64,000 bases of DNA from an uncultured Bacteroidales bacterium (GCA_903915465.1 CAIWTA010000082.1:4183-68182), one strand, 5' to 3'. Numbered from the stretch's first letter, positions 25,528-33,327 are shown. The notes: a model not told the origin generated them from the sequence alone. Numbers and translations: made by a program.

Positions 25528-26292
25528 TTAAAGTATATAAGGTATTAAAGCTCTTCTCCTTGCAGGATAATCAGGAAATGTGGCCTTATACCATTGATGA
25601 TGATTCAACGCCCTTGGAATTAAATTCACTATTGTCCAGATCGCAAATGCCAGTCCTGGTAAGCTCCACGTCATTAAAGCAAATCCGCACCATTCTAAGA
25701 TCTCGCTGAAATGATTGGGACATGAAATAACCTCGAACAATCCCCCTTGTGGAATTGTGTATCCCTTTTCTCCCGGTTTTCTTAAATGTATAAGAATATT
25801 GTCAGACTGCCAGTTTTTGGACAGACCATAGATACTCAAGAAAAGTCCCGCAATAAAACAGGGACTATGGAGCCAGGAAAGTTCATACTTCTCTGAAAGA
25901 GATCCAAAATAATATCCATTAATAAATCCATTTACCAGATTAAAGCAAAATGCCATCAACACAATGATAAATGGTATTTTCTTTCCTTTAGTCCTAAGCC
26001 TGAAAGGGAAAACCAATGTTCTGTTGATATAGTGTATCATCCAGAAAGCAAAAAAAACCCAAGGCACGATGTTATGCTTTAGAGTACCAAAAAGAAAGAA
26101 AAAGGCAAAAGCAAGTAATGCAGGTGACTCCATAATCATCCACCCGATTTTATTACTGATTAATGGTCCCCACGCAGTTGTAGTGTGTCTGCCGTATGGA
26201 GCAATAATCCTCAAAATAACAGGGAAAAGAATAACTGCAACAGCAATCCAGATGTAGATAAAAAAATAAAAATTCGTGGTTGACATAACCAA
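25528..26292 (-). CDS. 3-oxo-5-alpha-steroid 4-dehydrogenase (steroid 5-alpha-reductase) family membrane protein
   Basis: A polytopic membrane protein. The family-typical C-terminus is GGLFEVISCPNHFSEILEWCGFALMTW...RALNHHQWYKATFPDYPARRRALIPYIL. Confidence 0.8.
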   Translation of the reverse strand: MVMSTTNFYFFIYIWIAVAVILFPVILRIIAPYGRHTTTAWGPLISNKIGWMIMESPALLAFAFFFLFGTLKHNIVPWVFFAFWMIHYINRTLVFPFRLRTKGKKIPFIIVLMAFCFNLVNGFINGYYFGSLSEKYELSWLHSPCFIAGLFLSIYGLSKNWQSDNILIHLRKPGEKGYTIPQGGLFEVISCPNHFSEILEWCGFALMTWSLPGLAFAIWTIVNLIPRALNHHQWYKATFPDYPARRRALIPYIL

Positions 26293-26293
26293 G

Positions 26294-27280
26294 TTATTTT
26301 TTGTTTAGAAAATCATTTTTGTTAAACCAATTGAAGATATCTGTTATCGTTTCCTCAATAGGTCTTGGGGTGAAACCAAGCTCTTTCCTCGCTTTTGAAT
26401 TAGAAATCAGTTTGTTTGACTTTTTAATAATTTCTAACGACTCCTTAGTATAAAGTGGAACAGCTCCGGTTATCCTGCTGTGAAAAGTGATGAAAGGAAG
26501 TCCGGCTTTTGCTACCCAGAAAGGCATTTCCATTTGGGTTGTTCTTTTCTGAGTCGTTTTTTCGATTAAAATCGCGATTTCTTTTAAACTATGCCATTTT
26601 CCTGATAATAGATATTTTTCCCCGTTCCTTCCTTTATTAATAGAATCAATTGCTGCAGAAACGATGTCTCGAACATCAACCCAATTGTATCCACCCGGAA
26701 CCAATGCTGGAATCTGCCTATTGACCAATTGAAGGAATGCTTTTCCCATCAATGACGGTTCGTAATCCATCGGACCAATGATTGCAGTAGGACTTAGAAT
26801 AAAAGCATTTAAACCATTGTTCGCAGCTTCCATTACGATTCTTTCACCATCCGCTTTTGACCGGTCGTAAGAAAATGCGTTGTCATCTACCAATTCTCTG
26901 GTCTCATCCAGAGTCTGGTTCAGCGGCTCCTGGCGGAATGCATGAATAGAGCTAAAATGGATAAACTTTTTCACGCCCGCTTTCTGAGAAGCCTGAATAA
27001 TATTCCGTGTTCCCTCCACATTGAGCCTTCTTACAGTTCCAAGAGGGTCACCGGCAATCGATATTTTGGCAGCAAGATGGAACACAACATCAACACCGTC
27101 TACAAATGATTCTAAAAAATTAGGATCGAGCAAATCACCTTGAAAAATAGTTGTTTTCAAATGCTTAAGAGCATAATCATTTTGATGGCTTAATGCTCTG
27201 ACATAATCCCCTTTCTCTACTAATTTTTGGCACAAATTAGCCCCTACATGGCCATTGGCGCCAGTAACAGCAATTATCAT
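26294..27280 (-). CDS. extended SDR, NAD(P)-dependent epimerase/dehydratase / dihydroflavonol-reductase / HpnA-like
   Basis: Rossmann motif VTGANGHVGANL and catalytic YDRSK. Its stop lies 1 nt from the start of the 5-alpha-reductase-like gene, suggesting co-transcription. Confidence 0.8.
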   Translation of the reverse strand: MIIAVTGANGHVGANLCQKLVEKGDYVRALSHQNDYALKHLKTTIFQGDLLDPNFLESFVDGVDVVFHLAAKISIAGDPLGTVRRLNVEGTRNIIQASQKAGVKKFIHFSSIHAFRQEPLNQTLDETRELVDDNAFSYDRSKADGERIVMEAANNGLNAFILSPTAIIGPMDYEPSLMGKAFLQLVNRQIPALVPGGYNWVDVRDIVSAAIDSINKGRNGEKYLLSGKWHSLKEIAILIEKTTQKRTTQMEMPFWVAKAGLPFITFHSRITGAVPLYTKESLEIIKKSNKLISNSKARKELGFTPRPIEETITDIFNWFNKNDFLNKK

Positions 27281-27349: not shown

Positions 27350-28516
27350 TCATGCGGAAATCCTTTCCAATCCTGATTTTGCATTCAGGATATTCTGCAC
27401 CGGGCGAAATTCATTCCGAATCAATTGCCAACGGTTTGGATATTCGTTAAAGAGATGAAGAATCTTTGATCGGTGCTTTTTTAGGGCATCAGTAATAGCT
27501 GGAGGTGAAATGGGTTTTGGAAATTCATTTCCAAGATTTGAACTGGTCAGTATTTTATTTTGCGATTTTAATAGGTTAGCTGCATGCTCTAATCTATCCA
27601 ATAAAATAATCGTTTTTGCATATTTAACAGGAACTTCACCAACATGTTCTTTAAGCTGTTCTTTCACTTTTTGTTCCTGCTCTATATCGAAAAATAGATG
27701 GAAATCAGAAATGAGAACGTCACTAATACTTCTTTCCGGCACCATTGCATCAGCGTATTTTGCAGCTTTTTCCAAAATTGCCTTTAGATTGTCAATACTT
27801 CCGTCAAAACCCTTTATCTTTTTTATAGTGGATTCCGAAAATTTATAATTTCTTGAATTTTTACTGGAAATCTCCTCTAAATAGCTATAAGATAGATGAA
27901 TTATTCCATCTTTCAATTTCTCGGTAAGATGAGAAACCTCTTTTCGGAGTTCATTAACTTCATAAAGGATGTTGCGTGTATTCTCGGTAAGTGTAGCAAA
28001 TAATTCTTTATCCTCTTTTTGGATGTCGAAATGGGCAATAATTGAATTTCTGATTAGATGTGCAATGATCGTTTTATTACCAGTTGACAGTATTTTGGTA
28101 GGATTGATTGTTCCAAAATTACTAAGATCCGTCTTAAAATAAAAGAAAAAAAGATCATTATAACCATCGACAGAATTCTTAATTCTAATTAATAAAATAT
28201 TGTTATTAAATTCATTAAATATATTTAATTGAATCTTTTCTTTAGGTTTAATTTCGAAAGGCAAATCTTCAATTCTCAGCCAAGTGTAAGGAGAATTATC
28301 CAACCGGAAACGGTTTAAGATTGAAGTAGAGTCAGAGACATGAAATGATTCTTGAAAATACTCCCCGTTATCATTTTTTAACATCGTAGATACCAGATTC
28401 TCTTTCTCGTCGGTACAGTAAACAGCAACCACTTTTTCAATACCCGGAAGCAATTTAGGCAAGATATTGAGTATGAAAAGAATGGGTTTTTCAGTAAACG
28501 AAAAAGATCTTTTCAT
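27350..28516 (-). CDS. hypothetical protein, 388 aa, no domain recognised
   Basis: A long uninterrupted ORF whose codon usage looks like its neighbours'. The centre is rich in heptad-like charged segments (NELRKEVSHLTEKLKDG, QEQKVKEQLKEH). It sits behind a minus-strand TAtaTTTG box at 28535-28542. Confidence 0.6.
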   Translation of the reverse strand: MKRSFSFTEKPILFILNILPKLLPGIEKVVAVYCTDEKENLVSTMLKNDNGEYFQESFHVSDSTSILNRFRLDNSPYTWLRIEDLPFEIKPKEKIQLNIFNEFNNNILLIRIKNSVDGYNDLFFFYFKTDLSNFGTINPTKILSTGNKTIIAHLIRNSIIAHFDIQKEDKELFATLTENTRNILYEVNELRKEVSHLTEKLKDGIIHLSYSYLEEISSKNSRNYKFSESTIKKIKGFDGSIDNLKAILEKAAKYADAMVPERSISDVLISDFHLFFDIEQEQKVKEQLKEHVGEVPVKYAKTIILLDRLEHAANLLKSQNKILTSSNLGNEFPKPISPPAITDALKKHRSKILHLFNEYPNRWQLIRNEFRPVQNILNAKSGLERISA

Positions 28517-28534
28517 TTAGCATTAAGTTTTATG

Positions 28535-28542
28535 CAAATATA
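28535..28542 (-). promoter_or_regulatory. TAnnTTTG -7 box (minus strand) for the 388-aa gene
   Basis: The reverse complement of CAAATATA is TATATTTG, 18 nt upstream of the ATG at 28516. It is embedded in the TTAAG array. Confidence 0.4.
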
Positions 28543-28680
28543 TGCTTAAATATATGCTTAAACAAATTTAAGTTAAAATTGTTGCTTAAAATTGTTAAGT
28601 AAATTTTTCAGCATAAATAGAATAAAAAAGTTAAGTCAAAAATAATACTTAAATAGCTTGATATCAACCTAATAAAAATA

Positions 28681-28688
28681 TAGATTTG
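28681..28688 (+). promoter_or_regulatory. TAnnTTTG -7 box (plus strand) for the 28746/28996 genes
   Basis: TAGATTTG lies 58 nt upstream of the ATG at 28746. Confidence 0.4.
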
Positions 28689-28745
28689 TCATATTTTAAA
28701 ATCACATACTTAATAGTTATACTCATTTATTAAGCAAATTAAGTA

Positions 28746-28952
28746 ATGGCAGAATTTGATTATTATTCAATAATGGAGAAGCGGATTAATTATTTATCAA
28801 AGAAATACGATCCATTTAATAAATTTTCCAGAGAATGGGAAAAGATTACAGAAAAGCAAAATTGTACTCAATCTATCAAACCGAAATTAAAAAAAATACT
28901 TGCGAAACAAATGGCTGAAATCTATAATTCTGTTATCGCATTTTTACTCTGA
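28746..28952 (+). CDS. small hypothetical protein (68 aa)
   Basis: ATG-initiated ORF 44 nt upstream of the next gene on the same strand. It is a charged, helical-looking sequence. No homology recognised. Confidence 0.35.
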   Translation: MAEFDYYSIMEKRINYLSKKYDPFNKFSREWEKITEKQNCTQSIKPKLKKILAKQMAEIYNSVIAFLL

Positions 28953-28995: not shown

Positions 28996-29997
28996 ATGAA
29001 AACATGCAAGAAAATTTTTATCGGGTTGTTAGGACTGATCGTTCTTTTACTGGTCATCGCTTTTCTGCTACCTTCTAAATATCATGTTGAGCGCAACACA
29101 TTCATTATGGCGAACAAATTGACAATCTATGATCTGACAAGTCATTTCCAAAAGTGGGATCTTTGGGCACCCTGGACTCAGAAAATTGACTCCACAGCAA
29201 AATTTGAACTTGTTGGCCCCGATGGTGAAGTCGGTACAAAGCGGATATGGGATGGGAAAATCCTGAGAGATGGAGAAATGGTGCTTACTCAGCTTATTCC
29301 GGGAGAACTCGTTGCATACAACCTTTCGTTCCATAAAGGAGACTACAAATCCAAAGGGAAGTTAACGATCGAAGCACTAGGAGATTCCTGTAAAGTTTCC
29401 TGGATTGATGATGGTGATCTTGGCTATAATCCCATTTCCCGATATATGGGGCTTTTTATGGGAAAAATGATGAATCCGGATTTTGATAAAGGCCTTTCAA
29501 AGCTTAAAACGGTTGCGGAACAACGTAAATCCTGGCCAAAGATGAAGGAAACAACAATACCGGAACAATTTGTCCTGGTTATAGTAGATTCTGCTAGGAT
29601 AAAAGATTATAAGAAAGTCATGGGAAATGCCTTTGGAGAGATATTTAAATATATACAAACCAGCGGACTTAAACAAAACGGTTCTCCATTTTCAATTTGC
29701 CTAAAATGGGATTCTGTTACAAAAAGTTCTGTTATGAAAATAGGTGTTCCTGTGAATAAAGAAGGAAAAAATAATGGAAGGATAGCAGCTGAAAAAATTC
29801 CTGCCCAGAATGCAGTGATGGGATATTATTTTGGCCCTTATGATAAAATTGAGTCTGCTTATAACGCCCTTGCTCAATATTGTAAAGAAGGTAAAAATGA
29901 AATTACAGGCGGACCTTGGGAAATCTATATCTCAGATCCAATGATCGAAAAAGATTCAATGAAATTTGAAACTCATATCCTGTTTCCGATAAAATAA
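28996..29997 (+). CDS. membrane-anchored SRPBCC (START/Bet v1-like) plus GyrI-like small-molecule-binding fusion protein
   Basis: N-terminal TM (IFIGLLGLIVLLLVIAFLL). SRPBCC-like half (YHVERNTFIMANKLTIYDL...WAPW). GyrI-like half (AVMGYYFGPYDKIESAYNALAQYCKEGKNEITGGPWEIYISDP). Confidence 0.65.
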   Translation: MKTCKKIFIGLLGLIVLLLVIAFLLPSKYHVERNTFIMANKLTIYDLTSHFQKWDLWAPWTQKIDSTAKFELVGPDGEVGTKRIWDGKILRDGEMVLTQLIPGELVAYNLSFHKGDYKSKGKLTIEALGDSCKVSWIDDGDLGYNPISRYMGLFMGKMMNPDFDKGLSKLKTVAEQRKSWPKMKETTIPEQFVLVIVDSARIKDYKKVMGNAFGEIFKYIQTSGLKQNGSPFSICLKWDSVTKSSVMKIGVPVNKEGKNNGRIAAEKIPAQNAVMGYYFGPYDKIESAYNALAQYCKEGKNEITGGPWEIYISDPMIEKDSMKFETHILFPIK

Positions 29998-30274: not shown

Positions 30275-30781
30275 TTATTTGAATTCCTTTTTCAGCAATT
30301 CAACCCAGCCTGCAACTCTTTCCCGTGTCAGATGGTTTTCATACTCTTCATCGATTGCCAGTCCTACAAGTTTTCCTTTAACCAGGGCTAAGGAGTTTTC
30401 AAATGAATATCCTTGACGTACAACAGATCCTACAATGTTGGCATTTCTCTTCAGGAGCCATTCATATAATATCCCCATCGCATCCACAAAAGTTGAGGAA
30501 TAGGTACTTTGATCTCCCAAACCAAACAAAGCAACTTTTTTTCCTGTAAAATCAATTTCTTCAAGAGTTTCCAGAAAATCCTCAAAATCGTCCTGCAGGT
30601 CACTAACTCCCCAGGTTGACAATCCGAAGATAAGATAGTTATATTTTTCAACATCTCCTTTTTCAGCAAGATCAACGTTCATGATATCTGCTGCATCTTC
30701 TCCAAATGTCTTCCGTATAAGAACCGCAATGTTTTCTGTATTCCCGGTTGTGGTTCCATAAAATATTCCGATGTTTGCCAT
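30275..30781 (-). CDS. fldA: long-chain flavodoxin
   Basis: MANIGIFYGTTTGNTENIA FMN-phosphate loop, the WGVSDLQDDFEDF block, and a 168-aa length. Confidence 0.9.
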   Translation of the reverse strand: MANIGIFYGTTTGNTENIAVLIRKTFGEDAADIMNVDLAEKGDVEKYNYLIFGLSTWGVSDLQDDFEDFLETLEEIDFTGKKVALFGLGDQSTYSSTFVDAMGILYEWLLKRNANIVGSVVRQGYSFENSLALVKGKLVGLAIDEEYENHLTRERVAGWVELLKKEFK

Positions 30782-30798
30782 AATTGCAACTATTTTCG

Positions 30799-30806
30799 TA
30801 CGTTTG
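30799..30806 (+). promoter_or_regulatory. TAnnTTTG -7 box for the sensor kinase
   Basis: TACGTTTG. Its position implies a transcript start near 30813, which rules out the track ATG at 30771. That ATG would also overlap the fldA start. Confidence 0.45.
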
Positions 30807-30827
30807 TCCTATCCAAAATGCCTGATT

Positions 30828-32663
30828 TTGCTAAACTCACAAGTCAAAAGTAGCAAAATTTCCATAAGAAACATATCGCTTACGGAGAAACTTGTTCTTT
30901 ACTTTCTCATTATCGGGATTGGCGTTATCTCCGTGATAAGTTTTTATTCATTCTACAGCACAAAGAATGCATTGATGAGCCGGACTTTCGACCAGTTAAC
31001 TTCGTTAAGGCTGGTAAAAAAGAACCAGGTGGAGATCTTTTTCAGTGATCGCCTCAAGGACCTTACACTCCTCTCCAATGCTTATGATACAAAGCAGATC
31101 ATTTCATTTTTTAATGCTTGCAGAAAAAAAGGAAATGGTTCAGATGATCAGGAACTACTGGAAAAATATTCAGAATACCTGAATAAATACAAGGCACTTA
31201 GGAACTATTTTAGTTGCATTTATCTGGTTGGTGTGGATCAAATAGCGTTGAAGGGCTTTCTTCAAAATGAAATCAAACCTTTAATTGTAACAGATAAGAT
31301 CTTTGGGCAACAAATTATTACTTTTTCAGCCTCTCATTTTCAGCATCATCGGATTATTCTTCTCGACATGATCCCGGATCCACAGACTCATTTGCCGGTT
31401 CTGTTTATTGCTGCTCCGGTAACTTCAGAAAGTAAGGAAATCGACGGCTGGCTGTTTCTTGCAGTTTCGATTGAGGCGATCAATAAGATCATGGTAAACA
31501 ATAATCCTAAAAGCGGATTAGGTATGACTGGCGAAACCTATCTTGTGGGTAATGATTTCAAGCTTCGTTCCGGATCAAGGTTTATCCCGAATTCTATCCT
31601 GAATACCATCGTAAGGACACAACCAGCAATCAAAGCATTAAACAGGCAGGAAGGGCAAGTTATCACACCGGATTATAGAAACATTACGGTATTGTCCTCG
31701 TTCAGCAGGGTCGATGTCCCCGGCATAAATTGGGTTATTCTTGCCGAGATTGATTTGAAAGAGGCCATGATCCCGATCTACAGGATGCGGAATAGTTTGT
31801 TGATTCTAAGCCTTCTCATTTCCGTAATATTCTTCATTTTCGTGTTCTTCACCTCAAAAAAGATCACGAAACCTATTATCCTGTTGAGAGATGCTGCTAT
31901 GCGTATCGGGAAAGGACAATATGACGTGGATATACCTGTAAGGGCAAATGATGAAATCGGGGCACTAACCAGGGCTTTCAATATAATGTCGGCACAGATC
32001 AAGGAAAAAACCAAGGAGTTACAATCTGAACGTATTGGTCGTCTGCGTTCAGTGATTGATGCCGAAGAAAGCGAAAGGCAACGTCTTTCAAGGGAAATCC
32101 ATGATGGGATTGGGCAATCGCTGATCGCCCTGAAGCTCAGGTTGGAGAGTTTGCTTTACATTGAAAGTTCTGAGATCAAAGCAAACATCAACGTGTTGAA
32201 AGACCAGTTCGATGGAACAGTTGATGAGATCAGGCGGATCTCAAATAATCTAATGCCTTCGGTTCTCGAGGTTTTCGGGATAACCATTGCATTGCGGAAT
32301 TTATGTGACGAAACCGAAGAACATTGTGAGATTAACATCATTTATGGAACATCCGGTGATCTGGAAAATATCAATACAAAAATTAAAACCTATTTATTCA
32401 GGATCGCACAAGAAGCTTTTAACAATATCATCAAGCATTCCGGGGCAAAAGAAGTGGAGATCAAACTTATCCGGATCAATGAAATTGTTAATTTTACCAT
32501 TCGTGACAATGGAAGGGGCTTCGATGTAATTGATGTTGCTTTCGAAAAAGGTAATGGTTTGCATAATATGCGTGAACGGGTAGCTTTGATGGAAGGAACC
32601 ATCGACATCAAATCAAAACTTAACCAGGGAACAGAAATTATTATTCAAATTCCCGTTTTCTGA
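30828..32663 (+). CDS. sensor histidine kinase (Cache-like periplasmic domain, HAMP, HisKA_3, HATPase_c; NarX/LiaS class)
   Basis: Two TM segments flank a roughly 280-aa extracytoplasmic region. HAMP (ANDEIGALTRAFNIM). HisKA_3 H-box (ERQRLSREIHDGIGQSL). ATPase N/G boxes (QEAFNNIIKHSGA, DNGRGF, GNGLHNMRERV). Start proposed at the in-frame TTG at 30828, with low certainty. Confidence 0.85.
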   Translation: MLNSQVKSSKISIRNISLTEKLVLYFLIIGIGVISVISFYSFYSTKNALMSRTFDQLTSLRLVKKNQVEIFFSDRLKDLTLLSNAYDTKQIISFFNACRKKGNGSDDQELLEKYSEYLNKYKALRNYFSCIYLVGVDQIALKGFLQNEIKPLIVTDKIFGQQIITFSASHFQHHRIILLDMIPDPQTHLPVLFIAAPVTSESKEIDGWLFLAVSIEAINKIMVNNNPKSGLGMTGETYLVGNDFKLRSGSRFIPNSILNTIVRTQPAIKALNRQEGQVITPDYRNITVLSSFSRVDVPGINWVILAEIDLKEAMIPIYRMRNSLLILSLLISVIFFIFVFFTSKKITKPIILLRDAAMRIGKGQYDVDIPVRANDEIGALTRAFNIMSAQIKEKTKELQSERIGRLRSVIDAEESERQRLSREIHDGIGQSLIALKLRLESLLYIESSEIKANINVLKDQFDGTVDEIRRISNNLMPSVLEVFGITIALRNLCDETEEHCEINIIYGTSGDLENINTKIKTYLFRIAQEAFNNIIKHSGAKEVEIKLIRINEIVNFTIRDNGRGFDVIDVAFEKGNGLHNMRERVALMEGTIDIKSKLNQGTEIIIQIPVF

Positions 32664-32667
32664 AATT

Positions 32668-33327
32668 ATGAAAAAGATTAAAATTATTTTAGTGGATGAT
32701 CACCAGTTGGTGCGGGACGGGATAAAATCCTTACTTAACGGCATCAATGACCTCCAGATCATCGGGGAAGCTTCCGACAGGATTGAACTTTATCAGCTAC
32801 TAACCAGCCTGAGCCCCGATTTGCTGATCATGGACATCTCTCTTCCTGGTATTTCCGGTATTGAAATAACGAAGACCATTTGTCAGGATTATCCAGGTAT
32901 TAAGGTGTTAATGCTTTCCATGTACAACAGTGAAGATTTTATTTTCAACTCGATAAAAGCAGGTGCAAAAGGATATCTCCCTAAGAATACTTCACGAAAA
33001 GAACTCCTCGAAGCCATTTATGCCATTCAGAGCGGAGAAGACTTCTTTTCGGAATCTGTCTCCAAGACCATGCTCAAAAGCTATGTCAGAAGAGCTACGG
33101 ATGATGAAAAATCCATTGAAAAATCCAGCGAGATCCTGACTACCAGAGAAATCGAAGTGTTGAAATTGTACGTCGAAGGACTGATCAACAAAGAGATCAG
33201 CGACAAGCTTAACATCAGCATTCGTACTGTGGAGACCCACAAAAATCATATCATGCGTAAACTCGGACTGAAATCGACGGTGGAGATGGTTAAATTCGCG
33301 ATCCGCAATAAAATTGTTGAACTCTAG
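32668..33327 (+). CDS. response regulator, NarL/LuxR family (REC plus LuxR HTH)
   Basis: Receiver residues (ILVDDH, LLIMDISLPGISG) and a LuxR-type HTH (LTTREIEVLKLYVEGLINKEISDKLNISIRTVETHKNHIMRKLG). Confidence 0.9.
   Translation: MKKIKIILVDDHQLVRDGIKSLLNGINDLQIIGEASDRIELYQLLTSLSPDLLIMDISLPGISGIEITKTICQDYPGIKVLMLSMYNSEDFIFNSIKAGAKGYLPKNTSRKELLEAIYAIQSGEDFFSESVSKTMLKSYVRRATDDEKSIEKSSEILTTREIEVLKLYVEGLINKEISDKLNISIRTVETHKNHIMRKLGLKSTVEMVKFAIRNKIVEL

Follow-up and report, generated by a model that had tools for sequence, protein, structure and literature searches.

Among the described systems closest to the one reported here, TyrR binds several boxes cooperatively, some of which overlap its own promoter, and Fur operators can be read as rows of short hexamers (NATWAT) of either orientation, on which the repressor forms polymers. 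The heptads of the omega repressor and the ParR-parC system are arrays of 7-11 bp repeats lying upstream of their own operons on plasmids, with roles in autoregulation and in building a higher-order complex, and in NtrC-type enhancers strong and weak sites are clustered in phase upstream of the promoter and promote oligomerisation. Here we describe an array of eleven TTAAGY/RCTTAA sites (Y, pyrimidine; R, purine; 28523..28744) that fills a divergent intergenic region in a 64,000-nucleotide (nt) stretch of DNA from an uncultured Bacteroidales bacterium (GCA_903915465.1 CAIWTA010000082.1:4183-68182; hereafter the window, in whose coordinates all positions are given). On one side lies the minus-strand gene of a protein of 388 amino acids (aa; 27350..28516) and on the other a plus-strand open reading frame (ORF) of 68 aa (28746..28952). 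We read the array, with a probability of roughly 0.6, as a conserved, helically phased, multi-site autoregulatory operator bound by the 388-aa protein, which would be an orphan one-component regulator.

An earlier note on this DNA, made from the sequence alone, had placed six TTAAG and five CTTAA pentamers in the divergent region, together with two short tandem repeats and a -7 box for each of the divergent genes. It had proposed a multi-site operator or iteron field with the adjacent protein as candidate binder, to stand only if the enrichment outlasted dinucleotide-preserving shuffling and if the motifs were conserved in orthologous regions. These observations on the sequence were all confirmed: within the 229 bp between the two reading frames (28517-28745, 18% GC), TTAAG starts at 28523, 28568, 28595, 28631, 28730 and 28739 and CTTAA at 28545, 28557, 28585, 28648 and 28709, with 11 of 11 sites having the extended form TTAAG[TC] or [GA]CTTAA. 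The enrichment also went beyond base composition, as 20,000 dinucleotide-preserving shuffles of the intergenic region held a mean of 1.64 pentamers (standard deviation 1.27) and at most 9, so that a count of 11 was never reached. The second-densest 230-bp stretch of the window contained 5 pentamers, in coding DNA, with overlapping CTTAAG hexamers counted twice.

Conservation of the motif in orthologous regions is the decisive result in favour of a real regulatory array. The sample comprised 80 species-level loci encoding a homologue of the 388-aa protein (26-60% identity to the window protein), among them loci of Prolixibacteraceae, Marinilabiliaceae, Salinivirgaceae, Alkaliflexus imshenetskii DSM 15055 and three Carboxylicivirga isolates, and 76 of these include upstream DNA. 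Within 300 bp upstream of the homologue, 7-17 TTAAG/CTTAA pentamers were found in 76 of 76 other species (mean 10.8 with the window included), compared to a locus-wide background of about 1 per 300 bp; 267 other 300-bp stretches from the same loci with a GC content of 30% or less averaged 0.97 and never exceeded 5. The most over-represented upstream pentamer was CTTAA (833 observed, 152 expected from a first-order model) and the leading hexamers were ACTTAA, GCTTAA, CTTAAG and ATTAAG. In two loci, L082 and L083, the protein is 70% and 68% identical to that of the window, the gene order is identical and the intergenic DNA can be aligned. There, 10 of the 11 window sites were invariant at aligned positions, with 93% of columns invariant within sites and 45% elsewhere (Fisher p = 7e-11); the remaining site, 28709, is specific to the window. 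The co-inheritance looked for in an autoregulatory operator was therefore found, the sites being present in all 76 other species whatever the neighbouring genes. No second array was seen at any other gene in the 64 kb of the window and approximately 700 kb of related loci; clusters of at least 4 sites in the 80 loci and the window were rejected as evidence of a regulon, being coding DNA or CTTAAG hexamers counted twice.

Across these sites the recognised word was A-n-TTAAG-Y, with a pyrimidine following TTAAG in 92% of sites (the G being fixed by the definition of the search). Flank preferences were identical whatever the orientation, an indication that duplex DNA is recognised. Distances between sites of the same orientation peaked at 10-12, 20-23, 28-34, 42-44, 53-55 and 62-63 bp, those of convergent pairs at 7-8, 17-18, 27 and 39-40 bp, and those of divergent pairs at 1 (CTTAAG), 10-13, 21-24 and 34-38 bp; this periodicity shows the sites to be helically aligned with a period of about 10.5-11 bp.

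The two repeats of the earlier note were both present in the window, TATATGCTTAAA twice in perfect tandem at 28539 and 28551 (28539-28562; period 12, 2.2 copies and 100% matches by Tandem Repeats Finder) and TAAAATTGTT twice at 28574 and 28587, with a period of 13. The repeat search delimited the first as 2.2 copies of AAATATATGCTT (28536..28562), containing sites 28545 and 28557 and lying between the -33 and -7 elements of the 388-aa gene promoter. The perfect 12-bp tandem is peculiar to the window, whereas both of its inner sites are found at the aligned positions in L082 and L083, with different flanks. Its copies are better read as two phased sites than as a tandem duplication, and one site unit seems to have been homogenised or re-duplicated in the window lineage. 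Two perfect TTAAG-N12-CTTAA palindromes, missed by the earlier note, lie 63 bp apart: one (28568-28589) is just upstream of the -33 element of the 388-aa gene and the other (28631-28652), in its longer form TTAAGT-N10-ACTTAA, ends 5 nt upstream of the -33 element of the divergent promoter. The TTAAG at 28595..28599 (plus strand) forms an everted pair with 28585 (CTTAA-N5-TTAAG) and was conserved in alignments A3 and A5. One further contig (L081, ena:ERZ27313350:k141_1035015) carries an identical 388-aa gene and breaks off within the array, 152 bp upstream of that gene (locus position 1-152); the repeat-rich region of 18% GC may be a breakpoint for short-read assemblies.

The -7 boxes proposed for the two genes were found where they had been placed, and sites of the array lie on and around both sets of promoter elements, as befits a multi-site operator. 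The promoter of the 388-aa gene has a -7 box TATATTTG (28535..28542, minus strand, the window letters being the reverse complement; Bacteroidota consensus TAnnTTTG) and, across a 20-nt spacer, a -33 element TTTG (28563..28566, minus strand) with sites on both sides in a conserved layout. Sites 28568 and 28557 bracket the -33 element and 28545 adjoins the -7 box, while the first site (28523..28527), a CTTAA on the sense strand of the gene that is invariant between the window, L082 and L083, falls approximately where transcription is predicted to start, 6 nt before the ATG. Of 75 loci scanned, 62 had a TAnnTTTG box close to the start codon, as does the window; a layout of boxes and sites recurs across loci (...TTAAGC-TAAAA-TTTG-CTTAAG-N8-TTAAG-NN-TAnnTTTG), and CTTAAT immediately followed the -7 box in 24 loci. 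Sites thus overlap the core promoter of the candidate regulator's own gene in the window and recurrently across the loci, as is looked for in an autoregulatory operator. The divergent promoter of the small ORF (28658..28688, plus strand) consists of a -33 element TTG(ATA) at 28658-28663, a 20-nt spacer and a -7 box TAGATTTG at 28681-28688, both boxes being conserved in alignment A3. Three sites (28709, 28730 and 28739; 28709..28744, plus strand) lie in the predicted 5' leader of this ORF, the last abutting its ATG (TTAAGTAATG); the window and 27 of the 73 loci scanned have a TTAAG 0-7 nt upstream of the start codon (ATG, GTG or TTG) of a divergent ORF. Because sites reach from the start of the 388-aa gene to the ATG of the small ORF, the array covers the entire control region from gene to gene. 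It is without a sigma-54 promoter, the search for the -24 GG/-12 GC type having returned 2 loose matches in 76 upstream regions.

The 388-aa protein was assigned to no family by Pfam or NCBIfam, searched with single sequences and, for Pfam, also with 30 family members. More than 130 homologues were found, all of them unnamed proteins from Bacteroidota metagenome bins, and a profile search of 1.84 billion representatives gave 464 clusters at 50% identity; among the matches listed, nearly all members were about 365-400 aa long and aligned end to end, by which measure this is a discrete family. An AlphaFold2 model built from a 30-sequence alignment (mean predicted local distance difference test score, pLDDT, 76) predicts an alpha/beta domain of antiparallel beta-hairpins (residues 1-135), a single long helix of 76 residues (145-220), a small helical bundle (224-270), a disordered linker (279-292) and a helical C-terminal domain (297-378), in which short helices at 325-330 and 338-347 follow a long one. 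Foldseek gave the N-terminal domain weak matches to Cache and GAF sensor domains (probability 0.84-0.96, E of about 0.05-0.1). The family profile matched in the PDB the lid of NtrC1 (4l4u, E = 2.7e-5 to 5e-5), also 4bs1 and 1ny6, and weakly VpsR (7v2b, E = 0.036). By Foldseek the bundle superposed on the lids of ZraR, NtrC1, VpsR and FlrC with a probability of about 1.0 and a root-mean-square deviation of 2-3 A over approximately 75-80 columns, with weak E-values (0.13 or above), and Pfam AAA_lid_14 was matched weakly by 3 of 30 family members (best E = 0.039). Full-length Foldseek searches gave weak matches at the level of domains, and a separate model of the C-terminal half sharpened the match of the lid, not that of the DNA-binding part. 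These matches relate the modelled bundle to the AAA+ lid of NtrC-type enhancer-binding proteins. The AAA+ ATPase core itself is absent from the family: Walker A and GAFTGA-like motifs were found in 0 of 30 members, Pfam Sigma54_activat was also unmatched, and the AAA+ alpha/beta core is not in the predicted fold. Since it has neither an ATPase domain nor a sigma-54 target, the 388-aa protein stands outside the enhancer-binding-protein family as defined.

No part of the family is better conserved than the C-terminal domain, whose SPPAITDALKKH...IRxEFRPVQN segment is nearly invariant, in keeping with the invariance of the DNA motif, and the last 94 residues carry a net charge of +8. Pfam HTH_8 was unmatched, hhalign against E. 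coli Fis gave a probability of 0.3%, and a profile of the C-terminal 95 residues had no match in the PDB. From the model we infer that this domain is a putative DNA-reading head, placed like the helix-turn-helix (HTH) of enhancer-binding proteins.

Genes on both sides of the array vary between lineages. The 68-aa ORF is a real, conserved small protein, called by independent gene callers and a recurrent partner of the array, with counterparts in L001 (3503-3689, minus strand), L070 (3442-3741, minus strand), L072, L078 and L080. Small ORFs of close relatives have in common DYYSVMQKRIEYFAKKYDPYNR and a hydrophobic C-terminus, and the versions of Marinilabiliaceae and Carboxylicivirga, of about 100-120 aa, the motif YYxxxLEQVAEWFMQLFFDPxYH, within a general pattern YY..h.E.h.E(Y/W)F...(F/Y)DP.Y. 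Across lineages these ORFs differ greatly in length and sequence, and in many loci none was found; the small divergent protein may act with the 388-aa protein as a partner or against it as an antagonist. Beyond it, and probably co-transcribed with it, is a gene for a START-like SRPBCC (Polyketide_cyc2) and GyrI-like protein (28996..29997, plus strand), which neighbours the 388-aa gene in 22 of 80 loci, in about 20 of them as its immediate divergent neighbour. Downstream of the 388-aa gene, and probably in one operon with it, are a gene of the 3-beta-HSD/epimerase family (26294-27280) and one of the steroid 5-alpha-reductase family (25528-26292; together 25528..27280, minus strand). In 32 of 80 loci (about 40% of species) this pair is linked with the 388-aa gene, lying downstream, upstream or divergently. 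In Marinilabiliaceae and others the epimerase, reductase and SRPBCC neighbours are gone and the array is kept before the 388-aa gene, in most cases together with a divergent small ORF. As the neighbours vary and the array stays, the constant unit is the small ORF, the array and the 388-aa gene.

Synthesis of isoallolithocholic acid (isoalloLCA) in gut Bacteroidetes uses the same two enzyme families, and a 3-beta-HSDH homologue was substrate-induced in that work (bioRxiv 10.1101/2021.01.08.425963). The pair of the window type occurs in Bacteroidales of lake, peat and fen, and its comparison with the gut enzymes is at the level of family; it suggests that the locus is a steroid- or polyprenol-modifying module. 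Further along the window, 2-4 kb from the array, are a HAMP/HisKA_3 histidine kinase and a LuxR-type response regulator (30771-33327, plus strand), next to a flavodoxin gene (30275-30781, minus strand). The starts of the kinase and flavodoxin ORFs overlap by 11 bp on opposite strands, and the kinase has a weak dCache match (E = 5e-5) below the Pfam cut-off. From its gene context this pair is unlikely to be connected with the array, and the response regulator (32668-33327) was rejected as binder since it is syntenic in 1 of 80 loci, as is the kinase.

If the array is an operator for the 388-aa protein, dimers or higher oligomers of the protein, held together by the long helix, would bind TTAAGY half-sites about one helical turn apart, and the phased spacing would let them spread cooperatively along one face of the DNA. 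The lid bundle would be a remnant of the lid of an NtrC-type AAA+ domain. Because sites surround the -33 element, the -7 box and the start site, repression of the 388-aa gene and of the two steroid-type enzyme genes would be expected; the small ORF and the SRPBCC gene would be controlled by the same complex, since a palindrome precedes their -33 element and sites fill the leader up to the ATG. A ligand of the N-terminal domain would alter the occupancy of the sites, and the neighbouring steroid-type enzymes make a steroid-like lipid a possible ligand and a reasonable lead. The 388-aa protein is the best candidate binder, as the earlier note had suggested, because the array follows its gene through changes of neighbours and because it combines a regulator-like lid bundle with a basic, invariant C-terminal domain.

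Several points weigh against this reading. DNA binding by the 388-aa protein is predicted from features of the protein: it has no Pfam or NCBIfam family, and its C-terminal domain has no significant sequence match to solved DNA-binding domains or to Fis, so that the tentative HTH assignment is based on AlphaFold2 secondary structure, position after the lid, charge and conservation. The motif and the presumed recognition helix are both unvarying, so that covariation offers no link between them. The positions of the sites at the divergent promoter are also compatible with activation, and the motif may perhaps be used genome-wide by another factor, the scans having covered the 64-kb window and the related loci.

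It is in our view rather unlikely that the operator is bound by such another factor, either a conserved Bacteroidales regulator or the product of the small ORF, with the 388-aa gene as a conserved target. This would accommodate a C-terminal domain that matches no known DNA-binding domain, and the recurrence of the small ORF beside the array with a site just before its start codon (27 of 73 loci), but the small ORF is highly variable and was not found in many loci while the motif is constant, and no second array was found at another gene in approximately 760 kb. A general regulator would not be expected to require 7-17 sites at one gene in every species, and the 388-aa protein has the regulator-like features described above. 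Improbable, too, is a purely structural role, in which the phased TTAA steps would be bent or flexible DNA, or DNA wrapped by a nucleoid protein, with no dedicated sequence-specific regulator. TTAA contains the flexible TA step, and a period of 10.5-11 bp in a region of 18% GC would suit such DNA; against this, the G and the next pyrimidine are as conserved as the TTAA core, related AT-only words are much less enriched, the sites are kept base for base while the AT-rich flanks drift, and AT-rich control regions lack the motif.

The iteron field of the earlier note, taken in the sense of replication, found no support. ParR-parC and the iterons of Rep genes do consist of many short repeats upstream of a gene, and the array could on that likeness be a set of replication-origin iterons or a parC/parS-type partition centromere of a mobile or integrated element. 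The repeat unit is nevertheless of 5-7 bp in both orientations, as opposed to direct repeats of 17-22 bp, neither the surroundings of the array in the window nor the related loci contain a Rep-, ParA- or ParM-like gene, and synteny of the locus is kept across chromosomes, some of them in assemblies of 4-5 Mb, all of which makes this very hard to credit. Relatives of the 388-aa protein were found in none of 72,556 plasmids or of a viral contig collection. Plasmid-type iterons were accordingly rejected on repeat type, Rep gene and replicon (no dedicated search for DnaA boxes was made), a partition centromere for want of a neighbouring NTPase gene in the window neighbourhood and related loci, and an origin in a mobile element because plasmids and viral contigs held no relatives. 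There is likewise very little chance that the motif works at the level of RNA, whether by forming a leader structure or by binding a protein on the mRNA of the small ORF. Two to three sites do fall in its predicted 5' leader, one of them abutting the ATG, but most are upstream of both promoters, in both orientations and with symmetric flanks, and folding was no better than that of shuffles (z = -1.3 and 0.0 for the two strands). Rfam gave no family above threshold, the sole match being mir-2542 at 25.5 bits against a gathering score of 60. That the pentamers are functionless, being chance low-complexity sequence or the result of recent slippage, can practically be dismissed. The two short tandem duplications of the window would speak for slippage, but the inner sites of the 12-bp tandem, itself perfect in the window alone, are conserved in relatives; chance is refuted by the shuffles, none of which reached the count, together with the presence of the array in every one of the other species.

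A search of the literature on TTAAG in Bacteroidetes promoters and on relatives of enhancer-binding proteins in Bacteroidetes returned nothing relevant, and both motif and family are undescribed in the literature searched. The system proposed here pairs a multi-site autoregulatory operator with a regulator architecture that is likewise undescribed there. Transcription factors and motifs of the Bacteroidota are poorly charted outside gut model species, and the locus offers a precise and testable pairing of an unannotated family, present in the cultured Alkaliflexus and Carboxylicivirga, with the word A-n-TTAAG-Y, mapped promoter boxes and a predicted regulatory logic. If the operator reading is true, an enhancer-binding-protein scaffold stripped of its ATPase has been reused as a sigma-A regulator on a large phased array. 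Through the linked enzyme genes such a regulator could be a handle on bacterial sensing of steroid-like molecules, and it could supply an inducible promoter for Bacteroidales. A wider proposal, which we put forward tentatively and consider possible, is that the family is a new class of ATPase-less regulators derived from enhancer-binding proteins, having kept the lid and a diverged DNA-binding head. It would form an extended phased complex on 7-17 half-sites over a divergent sigma-A region and sense a steroid-like lipid to switch on the enzyme pair and the START-like protein, with the small protein as partner or antagonist.

Compared to known systems, the order of a sensor domain, elements of an enhancer-binding-protein scaffold and a C-terminal DNA-binding region (putative in the 388-aa family) resembles that of TyrR and VpsR, as does action at housekeeping-sigma rather than sigma-54 promoters. 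TyrR and VpsR, however, retain a complete AAA+ domain, whereas the 388-aa family is without Walker A, GAFTGA loop and AAA+ core, and its C-terminal domain is not detectably a Fis-type HTH; TyrR boxes are moreover 22-bp palindromes (TGTAAA-N6-TTTACA), few per promoter, where here there are 7-17 half-sites of 5-7 bp. With the NtrC enhancers the array has in common multiple, helically phased sites and a candidate protein of enhancer-binding-protein ancestry, but there is no sigma-54 promoter and no ATPase, and the core promoter itself is overlapped by sites, which in those enhancers lie 80-150 bp upstream. At least 7-10 short repeats of mixed orientation upstream of the gene of the (candidate) binder recall the omega heptads and ParR-parC, whose proteins are small plasmid ribbon-helix-helix partition proteins, unlike the multidomain 388-aa protein of a chromosomal locus without a partition NTPase. 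Fur differs in having contiguous hexamers, the sites here being about one helical turn apart, and in having another word than TTAAGY; the 388-aa candidate is unrelated to it. The array is like a Fur operator in its many very short AT-rich words, in both orientations, over and beyond the core promoter, and by this analogy so many short sites over a promoter argue for cooperative spreading and not for a single dimer site.

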